A stretch of DNA of 20,000 nt from Sarea resinae. Its lineage: Eukaryota. The notes below the pieces were generated by a model. The model made no database searches. It was given only the letters and a program-made list of their open reading frames with translations, and had not been told where the DNA came from. Every line of letters starts with the position of its first letter. The first letter of the stretch is position 1. Location: assembly GCA_026026165.1 (NCBI GenBank), contig JAPEUD010000005.1, positions 606,243 through 626,242 on the forward strand, in the 5' to 3' direction. The translations under genes and the position numbers were made by a program. This document shows, one piece after another, positions 2,536 through 17,689 of this stretch.

Positions 2536-3103
2536 GTTGAAGTGAATCTTGATGAGTTCGTGCGATCAAAGTGGCCAAGATGGCTTTCGGTCGTTGCTTG
2601 TGGAGGAAACTTTTCGAAGAGAATGAGCTTGATTTCTTTAGCGATATGATTAGATGGGCTCAATGTTGATCTGATCACAGATTAGATAAGATGCATTGAG
2701 TCCTCAATGTCGCCATCTCGCCAAAGAAGATTCCGAAGCCGGCGGCGACGTACAAAGTTACTATGATATGTATTCGTAAGTGGAACCGGAAAAGAAAAGA
2801 AACAAAAGGATAAGGAGAAGATCTCCAGTATCTAAACACCATAACCAGAGTCTAAAAACATCGAACATCTCCGAGGGAGCCACAGAATCCTCTTTATTAT
2901 AACCCTCCCCAACACCAGATCAGTCAGACTCGGGCGCGAAAGTTGACCTCATCAGGCTCGCGATACGGTATTTTATTCGCCATCCAAACACCCCGCCATT
3001 GCCCCGCTGTTGGACGACAAGCGCGAATTCCTACCTACACTTTCATCTGTCTTTCCCTTTTCTGATACTTGACAATACGAAAAGGCATTGAAAATCATTC
3101 ATC

Positions 3104-4049
3104 ATGTCTACCGTCACGGAGATCACTACGGATGCCGAGTTTTCCCAGCACACTTCCTCTCTCGCACCGTCGACCCTACTGGTCTTAAACTTCCATACCC
3201 CGTGGGCGGCGCCATGCGCACAGATGTCTACCGTGCTCTCGACTCTGGCCTCGTCTTATCCGCCCGCCAATCCTCCCACTGTGTCATTCGTTTCTATCAA
3301 CGCCGAAGATCTACCCGACATCTCCGAAGCATACGATGTTACCGCCGTCCCTTACCTCGTCCTCATTCGAGGCGGCCAGATCCTCGAGACTGTGTCAGGT
3401 AGCGATGCCACAAAAGTCCGTGATGCTGTTGAGCGACATGCTGGCAAGTCCAGCGGGAGTTCTAGCAACTTCACCATTCCGCCCGCGCAGAAGGTCACTC
3501 CGCCGCCCGCGGCCAATGGTGCCTCGAAAAACCTCAGCGGCTATGCACCAACCGCCTCAGACCCCGCTACAGCCCCAGAGATGACGGACCCAAGCACCAC
3601 GTCAAAGGAGGAACTGTTCGCACGGCTGACGGAGCTCGTCAAAGCCGCTCCTGTGATGCTGTTTATGAAGGGTTCGCCAAGTGCGCCACAGTGCGGATTC
3701 TCGCGACAGCTGGTGGCTCTTCTGCGCGAGAAGGGTGTGCGATATGGGTTCTTCAACATTCTTGCGGATGATGATGTCAGACAGGGCTTGAAAGAATTTG
3801 CAGACTGGCCAACGTTCCCACAGTTGTGGGTTGGCGGTGAGTTGGTCGGTGGCTTGGACATAGTAAGCTCATCTTCCTTCTGGCTGCTAGCAGCTCTACA
3901 TGATGATAATGAGTGCTAATAAATTGCTCTGGAAGGTCAAGGAGGAGTTCTCTGCCGATCCCGACTTTCTGAATGACTACGCTGTCAAAGCTAATGGGGG
4001 CCCTGCGGGGCCAGAGGCTCAAGCAAAGCCTGCGACTGCGAGCGCTTGA
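3104..4049 (+). CDS. GRX4: Multidomain monothiol glutaredoxin (Trx-Grx; Grx3/Grx4/GrxD type), 290 aa; exons 3104-3862, 3936-4049
   Basis: N-terminal thioredoxin-like domain with WAAPC, a Pro/Ser-rich linker, then a Grx domain with LFMKG, PQCGFS, VRQGLKEFADWPTFPQL and GGLDI. Intron 3863-3935 (GTAAGC..GCTAAT..AAG) restores GGLDIVKEE. Confidence 0.95.
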
Positions 4050-5682: not shown

Positions 5683-7559
5683 ATGGTAGACGGAGACACG
5701 AATTCTCCGACATGGAAGTTCACCCAGTAAGTGAACTTTTGGCTCCTCTATCAACAAAGGCGGGAAAATTGGGCGGCACGTGTCAGCCTCAGCCATGACG
5801 TGCTGGCATACAGAACTCACGACGCTCGACGTTGGCACTTACTGATTCGGTATGCTAGATGTTTTGGAGATAAAGGGGATGTAGAGGACATTACGGAAGG
5901 TCAGTGGCCCAGAAGACAGCTATTGCGATTTCTATCTTTAACAACCATCTATCAATGGCAAAGCTGACAAGATGATTAGCGGATATCATATCAACGGTAG
6001 AATTCGACCACACTGGTAACTATCTAGCAACGGGTGACAAAGGTGGAAGAGTGGTGCTATTTGAGCGGAACGAGACGGTGAGCCGTTCACCTATATTGAC
6101 CGTCGCTGCTCGGGAGCTAGGGTCAGCCTACGGATATGCAGGGCAGAAAGGCTGATTTTGCTTCAGAAAAAAACTTGCGAGTACAAGTTTCACACGGAAT
6201 TTCAGTCCCACGAGCCGGAATTCGATTACCTAAAGTCTCTCGAGATCGAGGAGAAGATCAACAAGATAAAATGGTGTAGGAGACAGAATGCGTCTCACTA
6301 CCTACTATCTACAAACGACAAGACCATCAAATTGTGGAAGGTGTTTGAGAAATCTCTGAAGGTGGTGGCAGAGAACAATCTGTCGCACGATCTTACCCCA
6401 GGCGGCGCCGTTGGCGGGGGTGGCCCTCCGAGGATAAACCCCAATGCTCATTTCCATGATGCGTCTGCCCTCAAACTTCCGCGTCTCACACACCACGATA
6501 CCGTTGTCGCTGCCGTACCTCGACGCACATATGCTAACGCTCATGCCTACCACATCAATAGCATCTCCGTGAACAGCGATGGGGAGACATTCATCAGTAG
6601 TGACGATCTACGGATCAATCTCTGGAACCTGAACATTCAAGACCAGAGCTTCAACATCGTCGACATCAAGCCAGCGAACATGGAGGAACTAACTGAGGTC
6701 ATAACGGCCGCCGAATTCCATCCGCAAAGCTGCAACCTCTTCATGTACGCAAGCTCGAAGGGGACCATCAAGCTCGCGGATATGCGAGAAAGTGCTCTAT
6801 GTGACCAGCATGCAAAGCGTATGTGGAGACACGACATGAATTACTGGCGGACGACTGACATTTGAGACATAGAATTCGAGCAAGAAGAAGACCCATCTTC
6901 GCGTTCATTTTTCTCGGAGATTATCTCATCCATTTCCGATGTTCGATTTTCGTACGATGGCCGCTACATTCTCTCCCGCGATTACCTTACCGTCAAGATC
7001 TGGGATGTAAATATGGACCGACAGCCCGTCAAGACGATCCCCATCCACGAGCACCTCCGGCCACGCCTTTGCGATACCTACGAAAACGACAGCATCTTCG
7101 ACAAGTTCGAAGTTGTCTTCTCGGGCGATGCAAAGAATGTCATGACCGGTAGTTACAACAATAATTTTATGATCTATCCCTCGGACCCGGAGAAGGAGAT
7201 GGAGGTTGTTCTGCAAGCGGACAAGTCCGCCTTCAAGGCCAAGAAGGTCGGCGTTCCTACGCCCATCAATCAGTCGACGAGTCCTAATGCTGCTGGGAAC
7301 AAGAAGGGAGGCTCTCGAGCCAATAGCCCTGCTGGTACGGGAGGTCAAGGTGGTAGGATGAGGAAGGAGACGGATGCGGATCAAATTGATTTCAACAAGA
7401 AAATATTGCATATGAGCTGGCATCCTTTCGAGGACAGCATAGCCATTGCCGCTACTAACAATGTGGGTTTCTTCTCTTTGCCGAAGCTGTCGTCCTTTGT
7501 CCGACCATTCGCTAATCTTATTTCTCACGATACAGCTCTTCGTCTTTTCAGCATTGTAG
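5683..7559 (+). CDS. CDC55: Protein phosphatase 2A B55 regulatory subunit (WD40), 482 aa; exons 5683-5726, 5859-5899, 5980-6077, 6167-6818, 6873-7462, 7536-7559
   Basis: Spliced product has [120 protein letters not shown] and AIAATNNLFVFSAL. All five introns are GT..AG with CTRAY-like branch sites. Confidence 0.97.
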
Positions 7560-7950
7560 ACAGATGAAGCACAGACTCGTAAAAAATGGGCCATCTTCCC
7601 GACGGTTTCTTCTATCGAATGCAAATTCAATCATCTTGGGTGGCGTTCCTCGTGTCCTTTGATCTGTTATGTGGTCTCTCTTCCCCCTCTTTCTTCACGA
7701 GTTGCATTTTCCTTTGTGAAGAGGCGAGAGGGTAGTAGGAAATGAAGTGATTAGAAATCTGAAGGCGGTACGGTACAGAAGCAGGGATAGAGAAGAACGG
7801 AGCGGGGAGGAAAGGATGAGTGAGTTGGTGAGTCGAGGAGTAGGACTGAATGTATTGAAGACGGAGAAGGGGGATCTGTGGTGAGCGAGCGAGCAAGCAA
7901 GCAAGCGCAGACGACAAGGAATCATACAGTCAATTCGATCCGAGGTATTG

Positions 7951-8612: not shown

Positions 8613-8756
8613 ATGGGTATATGCGTGCGCACAGCAACAATTCCGAATTCTAGAATGCGTTAAAACCTCTCTCTCTTGTGCATGATTGTATAGCACACTT
8701 TTCTAGATACTATTTCTTGCATCTAGGAGTCTTTAGCTATTCAGCTATGGTGACCT

Positions 8757-8846
8757 ATCCTCATCCTCATCCTCATCCTCATCCTCATCCTCATCCTCAT
8801 CCTCATCCTCATCCTCATCCTCATCCTCATCCTCATCCTCATCCTC
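8757..8846. repeat. Perfect (ATCCTC)15 hexanucleotide microsatellite
   Basis: 90 nt of uninterrupted ATCCTC units. It accounts for the (HP)n run in ORF-track entry 8678..8944. Confidence 0.95.
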
Positions 8847-8994
8847 GTCCCTGTCCTGCCCTGTCCTGTCCTGTCCCTGTCGTAGCAGGGTCTGGGTCAG
8901 GGTCTGGGTGTGATGGAATAATAAATCACACGTCTAGGGTCTAGAGTCTATAGTAACTAACGCCGATGTTTTCCCGTTTGATCAAGGGGAGCTG

Positions 8995-9168: not shown

Positions 9169-10839
9169 TCAGCCAAGCCGGACGACCTCGCCCGCGGCTT
9201 TCCGGAGCCGATTCATGACTGCGGCGGCTATATCGCCTCCGCCTCCGCGTGAGCTATCCTTTGCACTGTCACTACCCCTACCACTGCCACTGCCACTGCC
9301 ACTGCCACTCTCGTGGCCACCATCACCATCATCAGCAGCAGTAGCCTCATCGTCGTCGGAGATCCCCTCGACCAAGATGACGTCCACGCGCAACTCGTCC
9401 AGGGCGCGCAGAGCGGAGAACAAACCCCGCGCGATCTCGGCCGTCGAGGCGCCGAGGGCGATACTGCGGATTTGTAGCATTTTTTCTCCGTCTTGGTCTT
9501 GGTCTTGACCTAGGCCTTTGGGGGATGATGAACAGAGTGCGAGATGCTGGGTTATGACATTGTGAGGTAAGAGGGCGGGGGTGGTTTCCGAGAGGAGGGG
9601 CAAGGAGGACGAGGTCGGCGAAGAGGAAGAGGTGGTAGAGGCGGGCGGAAGAGACGGGTATTTCGTCATCTCTGCGCCCGGCTGGAAGGGCGGCGTCCAG
9701 AACTTGGTTGTTATGATGCCGATGTGCGTTTTATCGCCAATGTAACGCCGGATGAAAGCTGGTGATAGTGGATATGGTCCTGGCCTCTGCTTGTTACCGT
9801 TGCTGACACCGGCACCAGCACTATCACCAGCAGAACAGCCCTCGAATAATATCACTGCTGCCCGCGGCGAGTAATGCTTGTATTTCATGCCTGGCGCCCG
9901 TGGCGCTTTATCCCCGATCTGCGGCGCGTCTTTGTAACCGATGACGACTTTTTCCCAGCCGGGACAGGAGCGCAACTGGTCTATGCTTATGCCGCCTGGT
10001 CTGAGCACGCAAGGCGGATTGCTCAGGCCATCTACGACCGTGCTCTCAACTCCCACGCTGCATGGTCCCCCGTCGAGGATGATCTCAATGCGCCCGTTCA
10101 GGTCGTGCAGGACGTGCTGGGCGGTCGTGGGCGAGGGTTTTGTGGAGGCGTTTGCAGAGGGGGCGGCGAGCGGTTTCGAGGCTGCGTGGATGAGGGCGAG
10201 CGCGAGAAGGGAGGATGGCAGGCGTGCGCCGAAGGTCTGGAGAGTAGAGGTGACTTCGGGTGCTAGAGGAGACGGAGAAGGGAGCGGGAGAAGGATCGTT
10301 AGTGGTCCGGGCCAGAAACGCCGGATTAATGGATGGTAGATTGTGGGGATGGGGTCGTTATTATCATTATCGCCGTTCTGGCTAGCTCCCTTGTTGTTGA
10401 ATTGTGCGTGTGGTGCTGGCGAAGGATGGATGAGGCTTCGGAGCTGCGCGAGTGAGCAGACGTGGACGATGAGAGGATTATCCGACGGTCGCTGCTTGGC
10501 TCTATAGATTCCCTGCACGGCTGAGCTTCTCGTGGCATCCGCGCCGAGACCGTAAACGGTTTCCGTGGGGAATGCGACGGGGATATCTGTTGTGCGAAGG
10601 TGTGCTGCCGCTTCTCTGAGGCGCGCCGCGTCGGGACTGTTCTCATCCAGTTCTAAAACCCAGTCGTCTCGCGGGTCAAGATGCCAGGGGTCTCTGAGAG
10701 TTTCTTCAGAGCCACGCCATGAGATACGTCCAATCTTTGATGGGTCGACAGTAAGAATGCGCGTCTCGCGCGTACTGGGGGGATTCGGTGCCGCGACGGG
10801 ATCAGACATGTTGCGCGCCATGGTGGAGAGCAAGCGCAT
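9169..10839 (-). CDS. SUA5: Threonylcarbamoyl-AMP synthase (Sua5/YrdC, t6A biosynthesis), apparently intronless; first AUG at 10839, strong-context AUG at 10821 (550 aa), candidate ACG start at 10911
   Basis: Signature motifs PVAFPTETVYGLGADA, IYRAKQRPSDNPLIVHV, FWPGPLTILL, PLAAPSANASTKPSPTTAQHV, ILDGGPCSVGVESTVVD, LRPGG, APGMKYKHYSP, ARGLFSALRALD and AVMNRLRKAA. Confidence 0.96.
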   Translation of the reverse strand: MRLLSTMARNMSDPVAAPNPPSTRETRILTVDPSKIGRISWRGSEETLRDPWHLDPRDDWVLELDENSPDAARLREAAAHLRTTDIPVAFPTETVYGLGADATRSSAVQGIYRAKQRPSDNPLIVHVCSLAQLRSLIHPSPAPHAQFNNKGASQNGDNDNNDPIPTIYHPLIRRFWPGPLTILLPLPSPSPLAPEVTSTLQTFGARLPSSLLALALIHAASKPLAAPSANASTKPSPTTAQHVLHDLNGRIEIILDGGPCSVGVESTVVDGLSNPPCVLRPGGISIDQLRSCPGWEKVVIGYKDAPQIGDKAPRAPGMKYKHYSPRAAVILFEGCSAGDSAGAGVSNGNKQRPGPYPLSPAFIRRYIGDKTHIGIITTKFWTPPFQPGAEMTKYPSLPPASTTSSSSPTSSSLPLLSETTPALLPHNVITQHLALCSSSPKGLGQDQDQDGEKMLQIRSIALGASTAEIARGLFSALRALDELRVDVILVEGISDDDEATAADDGDGGHESGSGSGSGSGRGSDSAKDSSRGGGGDIAAAVMNRLRKAAGEVVRLG

Positions 10840-11417
10840 GAAACAGCGGCGAGATACTGAAGGCCCAGCAAGACAAATACGCCTCCTTCCAAAAGCTACT
10901 GTATTGGCCGTTTTGGATGATTTGGTGGAAACCCCTGCTTGAGAGCTCAGGGCGTGAATGGAGAGGTCTGGGGATGCTTGCGATGCTTTTGAAGGAGAAT
11001 GCTCATGACGAGGGTTCCTGAGGGCTCTGGATGAAAGCGTGACAGGCAAATTGATTCATAAGTCAGCGTCACATAATCGATAAGGGGCCGCGGCTCTTTG
11101 GATTCTAGATCCCGCGTCATATGCTGGTGATTGTTGTGGGGAAGAGTCAATTGGAGTTGAAGATGAAGACCAATGACACTTTTTTGTGAGTCGCACGGAG
11201 TATTTCGTACTCGGTACGTCACACGACAGATTCCGAGCCGGGACTTCCCACCAATCTTTCCTCACCCAGATTGGATTACAGATCGAGTTGAATGAATTCA
11301 ATCTTCGGGATCAATACTGTCATCGGCCAACCTTGCTGAATTGCCCGAAGTCCGCCTTCCTCCTGCGCGGCTTATACTCCATTCAGAGTCAAGTCCAGTC
11401 AAGTCGAGATTACGACA

Positions 11418-11998
11418 ATGGCACCTTCACGAGCGAGCATCGTCTTCAATGCGAGCAGTGTCGCCCGAATCACCCGGCAATCAATAAATCGACGCACGCT
11501 CACACAAGCTTCTTCGTTCCGACGAGCAGCCTCCGTTCCTGTCCGAATCCTTTCGCCGTCGACTTGTCGAGAAAGGCATTACTCTACCCCCTCGGATGTT
11601 GTGACTGAAGCCAAAAGCGCTGTTGACGCCGCCTCAAGCTCGCCCTCGCAAGAAGGCCTACCGGAGCCACCGACCTATCTGTCTGAAGGCGAACGGCATG
11701 TCTTCGACAAATTGCAGCAAGAGCTGACCCCTACGGAACTCGAGGTATGATTTCACATCCTGGAAGCCGTCAATCCAGCCTATAGAGTTAGGCGGCTTGC
11801 TTTTTACCCCGATGTTCACCATCCGTCTAGGTCCAAGACATCTCTGGTGGCTGCGGTAGCATGTATGCCATTTCAATTACAGGCGCCCCACAGTTCCGAG
11901 GGCTTTCAACGATCAAGCAACACCGGCTTGTAAATGACGTGCTTGGAGACGAAATCAAGAGTTGGCACGGCGTGCAGTTGCGTACCAAGATTGAGTGA
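11418..11998 (+). CDS. BOL3: BolA-family protein with mitochondrial-presequence-like N-terminus (Bol3/Aim1 type), 164 aa; exons 11418-11744, 11831-11998
   Basis: ACAATGGC start context and an Arg/Ser/Ala-rich N-terminus with almost no acidic residues. Intron 11745-11830 (GTATGA..TAG) gives LEVQDISGGCGSMYAI..FRGLSTIKQHRLVNDVLGDEIKSWHGVQLRT. SGGCG is typical of Bol2/Bol3 and the presequence points to Bol3. Confidence 0.9.
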
Positions 11999-15994: not shown

Positions 15995-17689
15995 ATGGCC
16001 AAGCGGCGGAAGGCGACGTCTCCCCCAAGCGTCATGACGACCGCGCAACTCCAGCGTCGCCAAAGTGCTCAGCTATCCCCGTCCCTTTCTTCTCCCCACT
16101 CGCTTCATCCAACGCCCAAGGAAATCAACGCCGCCTTTTACCTCGAAAACGCCCAGCTGGGCAGGCCTCAGCGCCGAGGATCGAAGATGTCGACCGCCGT
16201 GGGAATTGCGGGCGCGGTGATCCACACTGCAATACCGGCATTGCTGTCAACGGGGGTCATGGTCGCGTTGATCTTTGGTGGATGCTGCTCAAATGTTAGT
16301 CCGGACATTGGACGCCTTTAATTCAGCTTCCGCTATCACCAACAAATCACGCGTGCTAATTGGAACTCGTCACAGGTCTTTGCATTGGAAGCTATCGTGA
16401 AGTGAGTTCCCGGAGCGCCATCCTGCTTCCTCGCTTCATTCGACTGATCATATGCATTAGAGAAGATCCAGGCAGCGGTATGTTGGCGCAAGTCGCCTTC
16501 ACTCGAGGAGAGAAGCTGCTAATTCTTCAACCAGGTCTCCTGATTACACTCGTTCAATTCGTGTTTACGGCCTTCTTCAGCTATCCGCAGCAGTTTTCGT
16601 CCTCGGGCAAACCACCCTTCTTCTTGAAACCCAATGCCGTCCCTCTTAGTCGATGGATGGTCAGCATATTGCTGTTTTTCGCTATCAGCGTTCTTAACAA
16701 CTTTGCATTTGGATACAACATCTCCGTGCCCGTGCACATCATCCTGCGAAGCGGCGGCAGCGTGACTACAATGGCTTTGGGATGGTTTTGGGGCAAGCGA
16801 TACACGCGGGTGCAGGTCTTCTCCGTGGCGCTTTTGACCGTTGGCATCATCATCGCCGCCATGTCAGATGCCCAAGCAAAGGTGAGACATGATGCTTCGC
16901 ACGCTTTAATGCACCAACAAAGCTAAAAGAGATGTACAGGGCAGAAAGTCAAGTGCAAGCTCAGAGCCGACCGTCAACTTCGTCAAAGGCCTTGTACTTC
17001 TCTTCATTGCTCAAGTCCTCGCCGCATTCATGGGCTTGTTCATTGAATCCACCTACAGCATCTATGGCCGGCACTGGCGCGAGAACCTCTTCTACAGCCA
17101 TTTTCTCTCGATCCCGCTCTTCCTCGTCTTTCTGCCGGCGCTCAAGACGCAGTATCATCGCCTCGCAGACTCCCCTCCTCTCGCTACAGCCATATCCACG
17201 AGATTTCCCGACCTAACCAAAGAACTCTCTCCTGCGACATGGACGCTGCTCCCTCCCATCCCAACCAAGATTATGATCCTCATACTCAACGCTCTAACGC
17301 AGTACGCCTGCATTCGAGGTGTAAATCTGTTAGCCGCCCGCTCCACTGCTCTGACAGTCACCATCGTTCTCAACATCCGCAAACTCGTGTCGCTCTTCCT
17401 TTCAATCATTTTATTCAGCAACAAACTGGCACCTGGCGTCATTCTGGGAGCAGTCGTAGTCTTTGGGAGCGGGGGCATCTATGCATGGGAATCCCAGCGC
17501 CAACGCTACCGGCATCAACGGCAGATATCTGGAGTGCGGAGAAGAGACCTGAATATGGCCGTGTTTGGAAATCGGAACGGCAGTGCAAATGGCGCTCTTG
17601 ATAAGGAGAGGGAATTGGAAAGAGACAGGGGTAGAATCTGGGACCGTGACCAAGACATTGAGGGAGAGCAGAAGCGGGGGAAAAGGTAA
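15995..17689 (+). CDS. YEA4: UAA-family (SLC35B4-like) nucleotide-sugar transporter, probably UDP-GlcNAc, about 479 aa; exons 15995-16294, 16376-16401, 16461-16477, 16535-16881, 16940-17689
   Basis: Spliced LIFGGCCSNVFALEAIVKEDPGSGLLITLVQF, LNNFAFGYNISVPVHIILRSGG, HWRENLFYSHFLSIPLF and NALTQYACIRGVNLL..ALTVTIVLNIRKLVSL are characteristic of Yea4/SLC35B4. It has four GT-AG introns. An alternative start is the AUG at 16188. Confidence 0.92.

Follow-up and report, generated by a model that had tools for sequence, protein, structure and literature searches.

Yeast Sua5 is reported to reach both the cytoplasm and the mitochondria by means of two in-frame AUG codons, the first of which encodes the mitochondrial signal (PMC4615747). 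A comparable layout is described for dual-localised proteins of Cryptococcus and Neurospora, which typically have a first AUG with U at -3 and a strong in-frame AUG downstream (PMC7049704, Wallace et al. 2020). In that account two synthetases use AUU or ACG/AUU instead, and swaps between a weak AUG and a near-cognate codon are repeated. In the Pezizomycotina, the cpc-1 extension (NCC8) starts at a conserved ACG with A at -3 and G at +4 (PMC5487733, Ivanov et al. 2017). Here we analysed the SUA5 gene, encoding threonylcarbamoyl-AMP synthase, in a 20,000-nucleotide stretch of the Sarea resinae genome (assembly GCA_026026165.1, contig JAPEUD010000005.1, positions 606,243 to 626,242), hereafter the window. 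As N6-threonylcarbamoyladenosine (t6A) is needed in cytosol and mitochondria and depends on one SUA5 gene, the start codons of that gene would decide where the enzyme goes.

The first in-frame AUG of the window SUA5, at 10839 (AUG1), is weak and the next, at 10821 (AUG2), is strong. Given this pair and the yeast SUA5 design, leaky scanning is the simplest mechanism, and we favour the reading that the gene produces two isoforms by leaky scanning of AUG1 and AUG2, which we consider about evenly poised between right and wrong. Scanning ribosomes would partly bypass AUG1, where U is at -3 and C at +4, and AUG2 (ACCAUGG) would be the efficient start. The AUG1 product, with its short basic amphipathic N-terminus MRLLSTMARNM, would enter the mitochondria and provide threonylcarbamoyl-AMP for Qri7, and the AUG2 product would remain cytosolic and serve KEOPS. 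The AUG-free open frame upstream, including an ACG at 10911, would be untranslated leader, with any initiation at the ACG a minor by-product. What the sequence itself shows is the identity of the gene, the codon positions with their contexts and the codon-usage statistics; leaky scanning, the localisation of the isoforms and where the transcript starts are inferred.

The gene is a SUA5 of the Pezizomycotina, encoded on the minus strand in one intronless frame, open from 11055 down to its stop codon (9171-9169). Pfam matches to Sua5_yciO_yrdC (PF01300; 7.2e-51, 172.6 bits) and Sua5_C (PF03481; 2.8e-24, 86.6 bits) both exceed the cut-offs, and the YrdC/TsaC domain is N-terminal and the Sua5 domain C-terminal, as in Sua5/TsaC2 proteins. 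The two matches confirm the name SUA5 given to the gene in an earlier note on this DNA. Invariant motifs are common to the window protein and 49 homologues. Homologues in the protein database are 57-66% identical, the top matches being SUA5 models of lichen-forming and related Pezizomycotina, and the closest resemblance is to the lichen-forming Lecanoromycetes. Besides the window's own model, the database search found no relative more than 66% identical to this SUA5. The sole 100% match is that deposited model (P0003, 550 residues), which starts at AUG2. The protein, with 550-556 residues, exceeds most homologues (427-582) in length. An acidic, low-complexity insert near its C-terminus includes a GSGSGS-coding repeat (window 9290-9330). 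A simple-sequence repeat adjoins the gene downstream (window 8740-8900), where every frame reads as dipeptide or homopolymer runs (HP, DE, MR, S).

On rereading the leader, we found the frame open from 11055 to AUG1 with no in-frame ATG, as the earlier note had stated, and its description of the AUG contexts (poor at 10839, ideal at 10821, a third AUG at 10809) was accurate. The first AUG, tgtttcAUGc with U at -3, followed in frame by tccaccAUGg in strong context, has the DualAUG arrangement. AUG2 is the likely cytosolic start, again in agreement with the note: it has the ACCAUGG context, it begins P0003, and it aligns with the annotated start Met of most homologues. The note had also pointed to an in-frame ACG at 10911-10909 in tccaaaACGgcc, correct in position, frame and context, and to the protein that would start there, whose first 30 residues do hold six Arg and no Asp or Glu and end in RLL|ST. 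That N-terminus would read (M)ANTVAFGRRRICLAGPSVSRRCF, then MRLLST, then MARNM. Taken alone, the extension between the ACG and AUG1 is 24 codons long, with five Arg and no Asp or Glu.

Ten near-cognate codons are in frame in the leader. Only the ACG at 10911 has both A at -3 and G at +4, and no stop separates it from AUG1. The earlier note did not list the nine others, which include a CTG at 10950, nor the out-of-frame ATGs at 11120, 11074, 11059 and 11006 in the distal leader. Two upstream open reading frames (uORFs), of 57 and 19 codons, lie in the distal leader (window 10947-11120), share one frame and stop at 10947. Between 11004 and 10839 there is no ATG in any frame. The note proposed that the ACG starts a mitochondrial isoform; it overlooked a simpler route, with the weak AUG1 as the start of that form. 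Both models could hold together.

To compare the N-termini of related proteins, we examined, in 119 homologues (P0004-P0122), the residues that precede the conserved N-terminal domain, with the last Met before the domain taken as the cytosolic Met, which is a heuristic. No extension precedes this Met in 76 of the 119. Ten have 2-13 additional residues, none basic, and in 11 the extension is at least 15 residues long and acidic or mixed. The remaining 22 have a basic, acid-poor extension of 15-54 residues (median 33.5). Judged from these sequences, a putative presequence started by an AUG and followed by an internal Met is a recurrent design in the clade, annotated in about one fifth of the models. 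The other 97 models have no presequence-like AUG extension and leave the supply of mitochondrial Sua5 unexplained. At six residues, the extension from AUG1 is shorter than each of the 22, and a start at the ACG would give 30 residues.

We then asked whether the stretch between the ACG and AUG1 resembles coding sequence, with noncoding sequence of this 20-kb window as the source of all nulls. A codon log-odds score trained on the other genes of the window was -0.40 for this stretch. All 162 SUA5 coding windows of equal length scored higher (mean 0.17), and 95.5% of 1040 stop-free noncoding windows scored at least as high. The fraction of G or C at third codon positions (GC3) was 8/24 in the extension, whereas the first 24 codons downstream of AUG1 gave 19/24 (Fisher p = 0.003). 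In blocks of 12 codons GC3 was 4/12 and 4/12 upstream of AUG1 and then 11/12 (0.33, 0.33, 0.92), which places the switch at AUG1. A GC3 as low as that of the extension was found in 7 of 533 SUA5 windows and in 1.4% of 1324 windows from other genes. By neither measure, a log-odds of -0.40 or a GC3 of 8/24, does the extension carry a coding signature, and both count against its being translated under selection, GC3 only moderately.

A second score, based on composition and trained on 24 real AUG-started extensions (23 from homologues and one from the metagenome locus L001, described below), discriminates weakly. The positives had a mean of 0.17 (SD 0.26) and the null a mean of -0.12 (SD 0.19). 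The window extension scored -0.035, a value reached by 35% of 1096 noncoding windows, and 8% of the positives were as low; we give this little weight either way. Downstream of the ACG we found no stabilising hairpin (z = +1.74; in 196 of 200 shuffles the fold was equally good or better). The interpretation in the earlier note is partly supported: it holds for the identity of SUA5, for AUG2 as the cytosolic start and for the precedents it drew on, namely yeast Sua5 dual targeting, described with two in-frame AUGs (PMC4615747), and fungal near-cognate codons, ACG among them, that add mitochondrial presequences (PMC7049704, PMC6582344). Its proposed use of the ACG fits poorly with the noncoding-like codon usage and GC3, and the composition score does not separate the extension from noncoding translation.

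Among the N-termini of five candidate isoforms, that of the AUG1 product has the highest 11-residue hydrophobic moment (0.72), which favours the leaky scanning reading, as do the codon statistics and the layout of L001. Several observations weigh against this reading. Just six codons (18 nt) lie between AUG1 and AUG2, as against at least 15 residues in all 22 presequence-like extensions of the homologues. The two AUGs of yeast SUA5 are likewise fewer than 12 codons apart. MRLLSTMARNM is followed by Asp13, several Pro and Glu25, so a presequence started at AUG1 would be minimal. The sole control presequence in the window, that of the BolA-like gene, has a GC3 of only 0.50-0.54, and for this reason the GC3 argument is moderate and not strong. 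The charge pattern of the extension (found in 3-4% of noncoding windows) and the AAA-ACG-G context (2%, chosen post hoc) are also somewhat unusual for a plain leader.

Chance alone would produce most of the other leader features. Of 1908 noncoding positions, 46.0% had an upstream frame open for at least 24 codons and 8.6% one open for at least 72, and 19.8% of noncoding 165-nt stretches were free of ATG. A at -3 together with G at +4 occurred in 5.4% of 2393 noncoding near-cognates, so that a set of ten would include one or more such codons with a probability of 43%. The more specific AAA at -3 to -1 with G at +4 is expected among ten in 2.1%, for a criterion that was picked post hoc. A net charge of at least +6 without Asp or Glu over 30 residues was found in 2.9% of 1181 stop-free noncoding windows, and in 0.9% when the hydrophobic moment was matched as well. 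For the 24 residues upstream of AUG1, a net charge of at least +5 without Asp or Glu was found in 4.3% of 1096 noncoding windows. The leader exceeds chance only in part, the charge pattern and the AAA/G+4 context being its uncommon features.

These two uncommon features bear on a possible but doubtful alternative. In it a near-cognate codon, best the ACG at 10911 and second the CTG at 10950, would start a minor extended isoform whose 30- or 43-residue presequence, cleaved near RLL|ST, would target it to the mitochondria. AUG1 would then be minor or additive, and AUG2 would again give the cytosolic form. The ACG is in frame without an intervening stop, has G at +4 and AAA at -3 to -1, and follows the pattern of the conserved cpc-1 ACG of Pezizomycotina, a start with experimental support in which the A at -3 and the G at +4 are rated as mattering most (PMC5487733). 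The leader is free of ATGs in all frames from 11004 to 10839, and the extension has a charge of +5 to +6 and no acidic residues. Its 30 residues upstream of AUG2 fall within the 15-54 of the homologues, where AUG1 gives six. The 97 of 119 annotated homologues with no presequence-like AUG extension would also be in keeping with a non-AUG start, as would the weak-AUG/near-cognate swaps in fungal aminoacyl-tRNA synthetases, with ACG for Cryptococcus LeuRS (PMC7049704). Set against this are the noncoding-like codon usage and GC3 of the extension, a composition score that a third of noncoding windows equal, the absence of a stable hairpin after the ACG, and the ease with which chance gives an open frame (46%) or a near-cognate with A-3 and G+4 (43%). 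Presequences predicted from upstream starts are also common. In yeast, putative upstream in-frame starts are listed for 4457 of 6664 genes, and more than 600 proteins are predicted to have a mitochondrial targeting sequence (MTS) only when extended (PMC6582344).

A metagenome scan provided one analogue of the ACG model. The scan, dominated by universally conserved motifs, matched 595 stretches and gave 584 relatives, of which 80 were kept and four (L001-L004) inspected. The remaining 76 loci are 38-47% identical, mostly through the N-terminal domain, and are presumed prokaryotic. L003 and L004 were rejected as fungal SUA5 loci, being compact genes of prokaryotic type. L001 (48% identical) and L002 (47%) look fungal. 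L001 has a weak AUG, then a basic extension of 56 codons, then ATGATGG. L002 has no upstream AUG; after an in-frame CTG (acaCTGg) come 28 codons (ASLKIFQHVPPRGARPRNSFALQTAIR), basic and with no acidic residues, and then its first AUG. Its first two AUGs both carry C at -3. The composition score of the L002 extension was exceeded by 9.9% of null windows. In both loci the GC3 comparison is uninformative, as coding GC3 (0.55 and 0.49) is close to the values of the extensions. L002 appears to parallel the ACG model. It is, however, an isolated example recognised in hindsight, with an extension that is not homologous to that of the window.

It is also conceivable, though unlikely, that start codons play no part in sorting. 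One main product, from AUG2 and/or AUG1, would be shared out between the compartments through a signal that is weak or internal, or else this fungus would need no mitochondrial Sua5, and AUG1 and the open frame would be incidental. The 76 homologue models that begin at the cytosolic Met with nothing upstream are consistent with this, and the upstream features are each compatible with chance. In Cryptococcus neoformans, a 22-residue MTS is predicted for Sua5, part of the protein is mitochondrial, and an allele without the MTS is reported to restore wild-type phenotypes (PMC10826353). However, the weak-then-strong AUG pair fits a known design, presequence-like extensions started by AUG occur in 22 of the 119 homologues and in L001, and Sua5 is described as mitochondrial in both yeasts studied; gene models may simply overlook upstream starts. 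Very improbable is an upstream exon with its own AUG spliced to the open frame, which would make the extension ordinary coding sequence missed in annotation. The frame is open for 72 codons above AUG1, as at only 8.6% of noncoding positions, but the rest of the gene is intronless. We joined every upstream ATG in frame and stop-free through GT..AG introns of 42-400 nt and obtained nine combinations. In none of the nine does the donor (GTATAA, GTAATC or GTCACG) fit even a loose fungal consensus, and all these models were rejected.

The features of the locus are collected in Table 1. Divergent to SUA5 is a BolA-like gene (11418-11998, plus strand), with exons judged by eye at 11418-11744 and 11831-11998 and an 86-nt intron (GTATGA...TAG); its Pfam BolA match falls on the second exon. 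Its long basic N-terminus resembles a mitochondrial presequence. The two genes have a common intergenic or promoter region of 578 bp between their first AUGs. The neighbouring genes are of ordinary housekeeping type: a methylenetetrahydrofolate dehydrogenase/cyclohydrolase fragment (377-1060), a Brix-domain protein (1691-2659), a thioredoxin-glutaredoxin fusion (3092-3919), a WD40 protein (6065-7567) and a UAA-family transporter (16360-17689).

Table 1. Coordinates of features at the window SUA5 locus and of the L002 extension.
Feature	Position	Strand	Details
SUA5 (threonylcarbamoyl-AMP synthase) coding sequence from first AUG	9169..10839	-	556 codons + stop 9171-9169; no intron; single open frame, Pfam, homologues
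AUG1, candidate start of mitochondrial isoform	10837..10839	-	weak context tgtttcATGc (U -3, C +4); N-terminus MRLLSTMARNM
AUG2, likely cytosolic start	10819..10821	-	strong context tccaccATGg (ACCAUGG); start of deposited 550-aa model
AUG3, third in-frame AUG	10807..10809	-	cgcaacATGt (A -3, U +4); sequence
ACG, proposed near-cognate start	10909..10911	-	AAA-ACG-G, in frame; context tccaaaACGgcc
Putative 24-codon N-terminal extension	10840..10911	-	(M)ANTVAFGRRRICLAGPSVSRRCF; basic, no acidic residues; codon usage not coding-like
CTG, alternative in-frame near-cognate start	10948..10950	-	G -3, A +4; 37 codons upstream of AUG1
Out-of-frame uORF from ATG 11006	10947..11006	-	19 codons + stop; translated only if transcription begins upstream
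In-frame TGA, upstream limit of SUA5 frame	11056..11058	-	sequence
BolA-like gene, first exon	11418..11744	+	divergent to SUA5; exon boundary judged by eye
CTG-fronted extension of L002	L002:2788-2874		metagenome fungal SUA5 locus, 47% identity

If only the two AUGs are used, the window SUA5 is a further example of a known design and is relevant mainly to annotation: because the deposited model begins at AUG2, the probable mitochondrial form is missing from it. Should the ACG be used, SUA5 would join a short list of fungal genes with presequences started at near-cognate codons. This would suggest that many SUA5 models of lichen fungi lack their mitochondrial isoform, and the choice of isoform may then respond to t6A status. 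For a t6A-deficient yeast strain without TCS2/SUA5, a doubling of non-AUG starts is reported (PMC4717488). As t6A on the initiator tRNA restrains near-cognate initiation, the share of an ACG isoform would rise when t6A drops. A broader idea, speculative and improbable in our estimate, is that mitochondrial Sua5 comes from a near-cognate codon (ACG here, CUG in L002), maybe in many of the 97 fungi, through a switch from weak AUG to near-cognate in the t6A pathway, with the ACG isoform gaining as t6A falls. SUA5 would then hold a built-in sensor of its own product. A full-text literature search found no paper linking Sua5 to a mitochondrial form started at a non-AUG codon. The main text of PMC6582344 has no mention of 'SUA5' (0 occurrences), a count that leaves aside its supplementary candidate tables, where yeast SUA5 could be listed.

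Either way, the window SUA5 belongs to a known kind of system. It is of the same enzyme family as S. cerevisiae SUA5 (TCS2), and each gene has at its 5' end a pair of in-frame AUGs close together. Of the yeast pair, the first is described as mitochondrial and the second as cytosolic; in the window the first is weak and the second strong, and the fates of the isoforms are predicted. The DualAUG aminoacyl-tRNA synthetases of Cryptococcus and Neurospora, as described, also have a first AUG with U at -3 and a strong second AUG in frame, but a full predicted MTS lies between their AUGs, where the window has six codons only. C. neoformans Sua5 is another fungal Sua5 with an N-terminal presequence, but one started by AUG and reported as dispensable for the phenotypes tested.

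The ACG and its extension have their own counterparts. Yeast ALA1, GRS1, HFA1 and HYR1 and Cryptococcus LeuRS (ACG/AUU) and ArgRS (AUU) are described with an upstream near-cognate in strong context and a basic, acid-free extension, as in the window. Those cases are backed by ribosome occupancy, conservation or localisation, whereas the window ACG is a candidate start and its extension has no coding signature. The cpc-1 leader, too, is from Pezizomycotina and carries an ACG in frame with the main open reading frame, flanked by A at -3 and by G at +4. The cpc-1 ACG is reported as conserved in 98 of 100 species, its extension is under purifying selection and its role is regulatory, whereas the role proposed for the window ACG is targeting.

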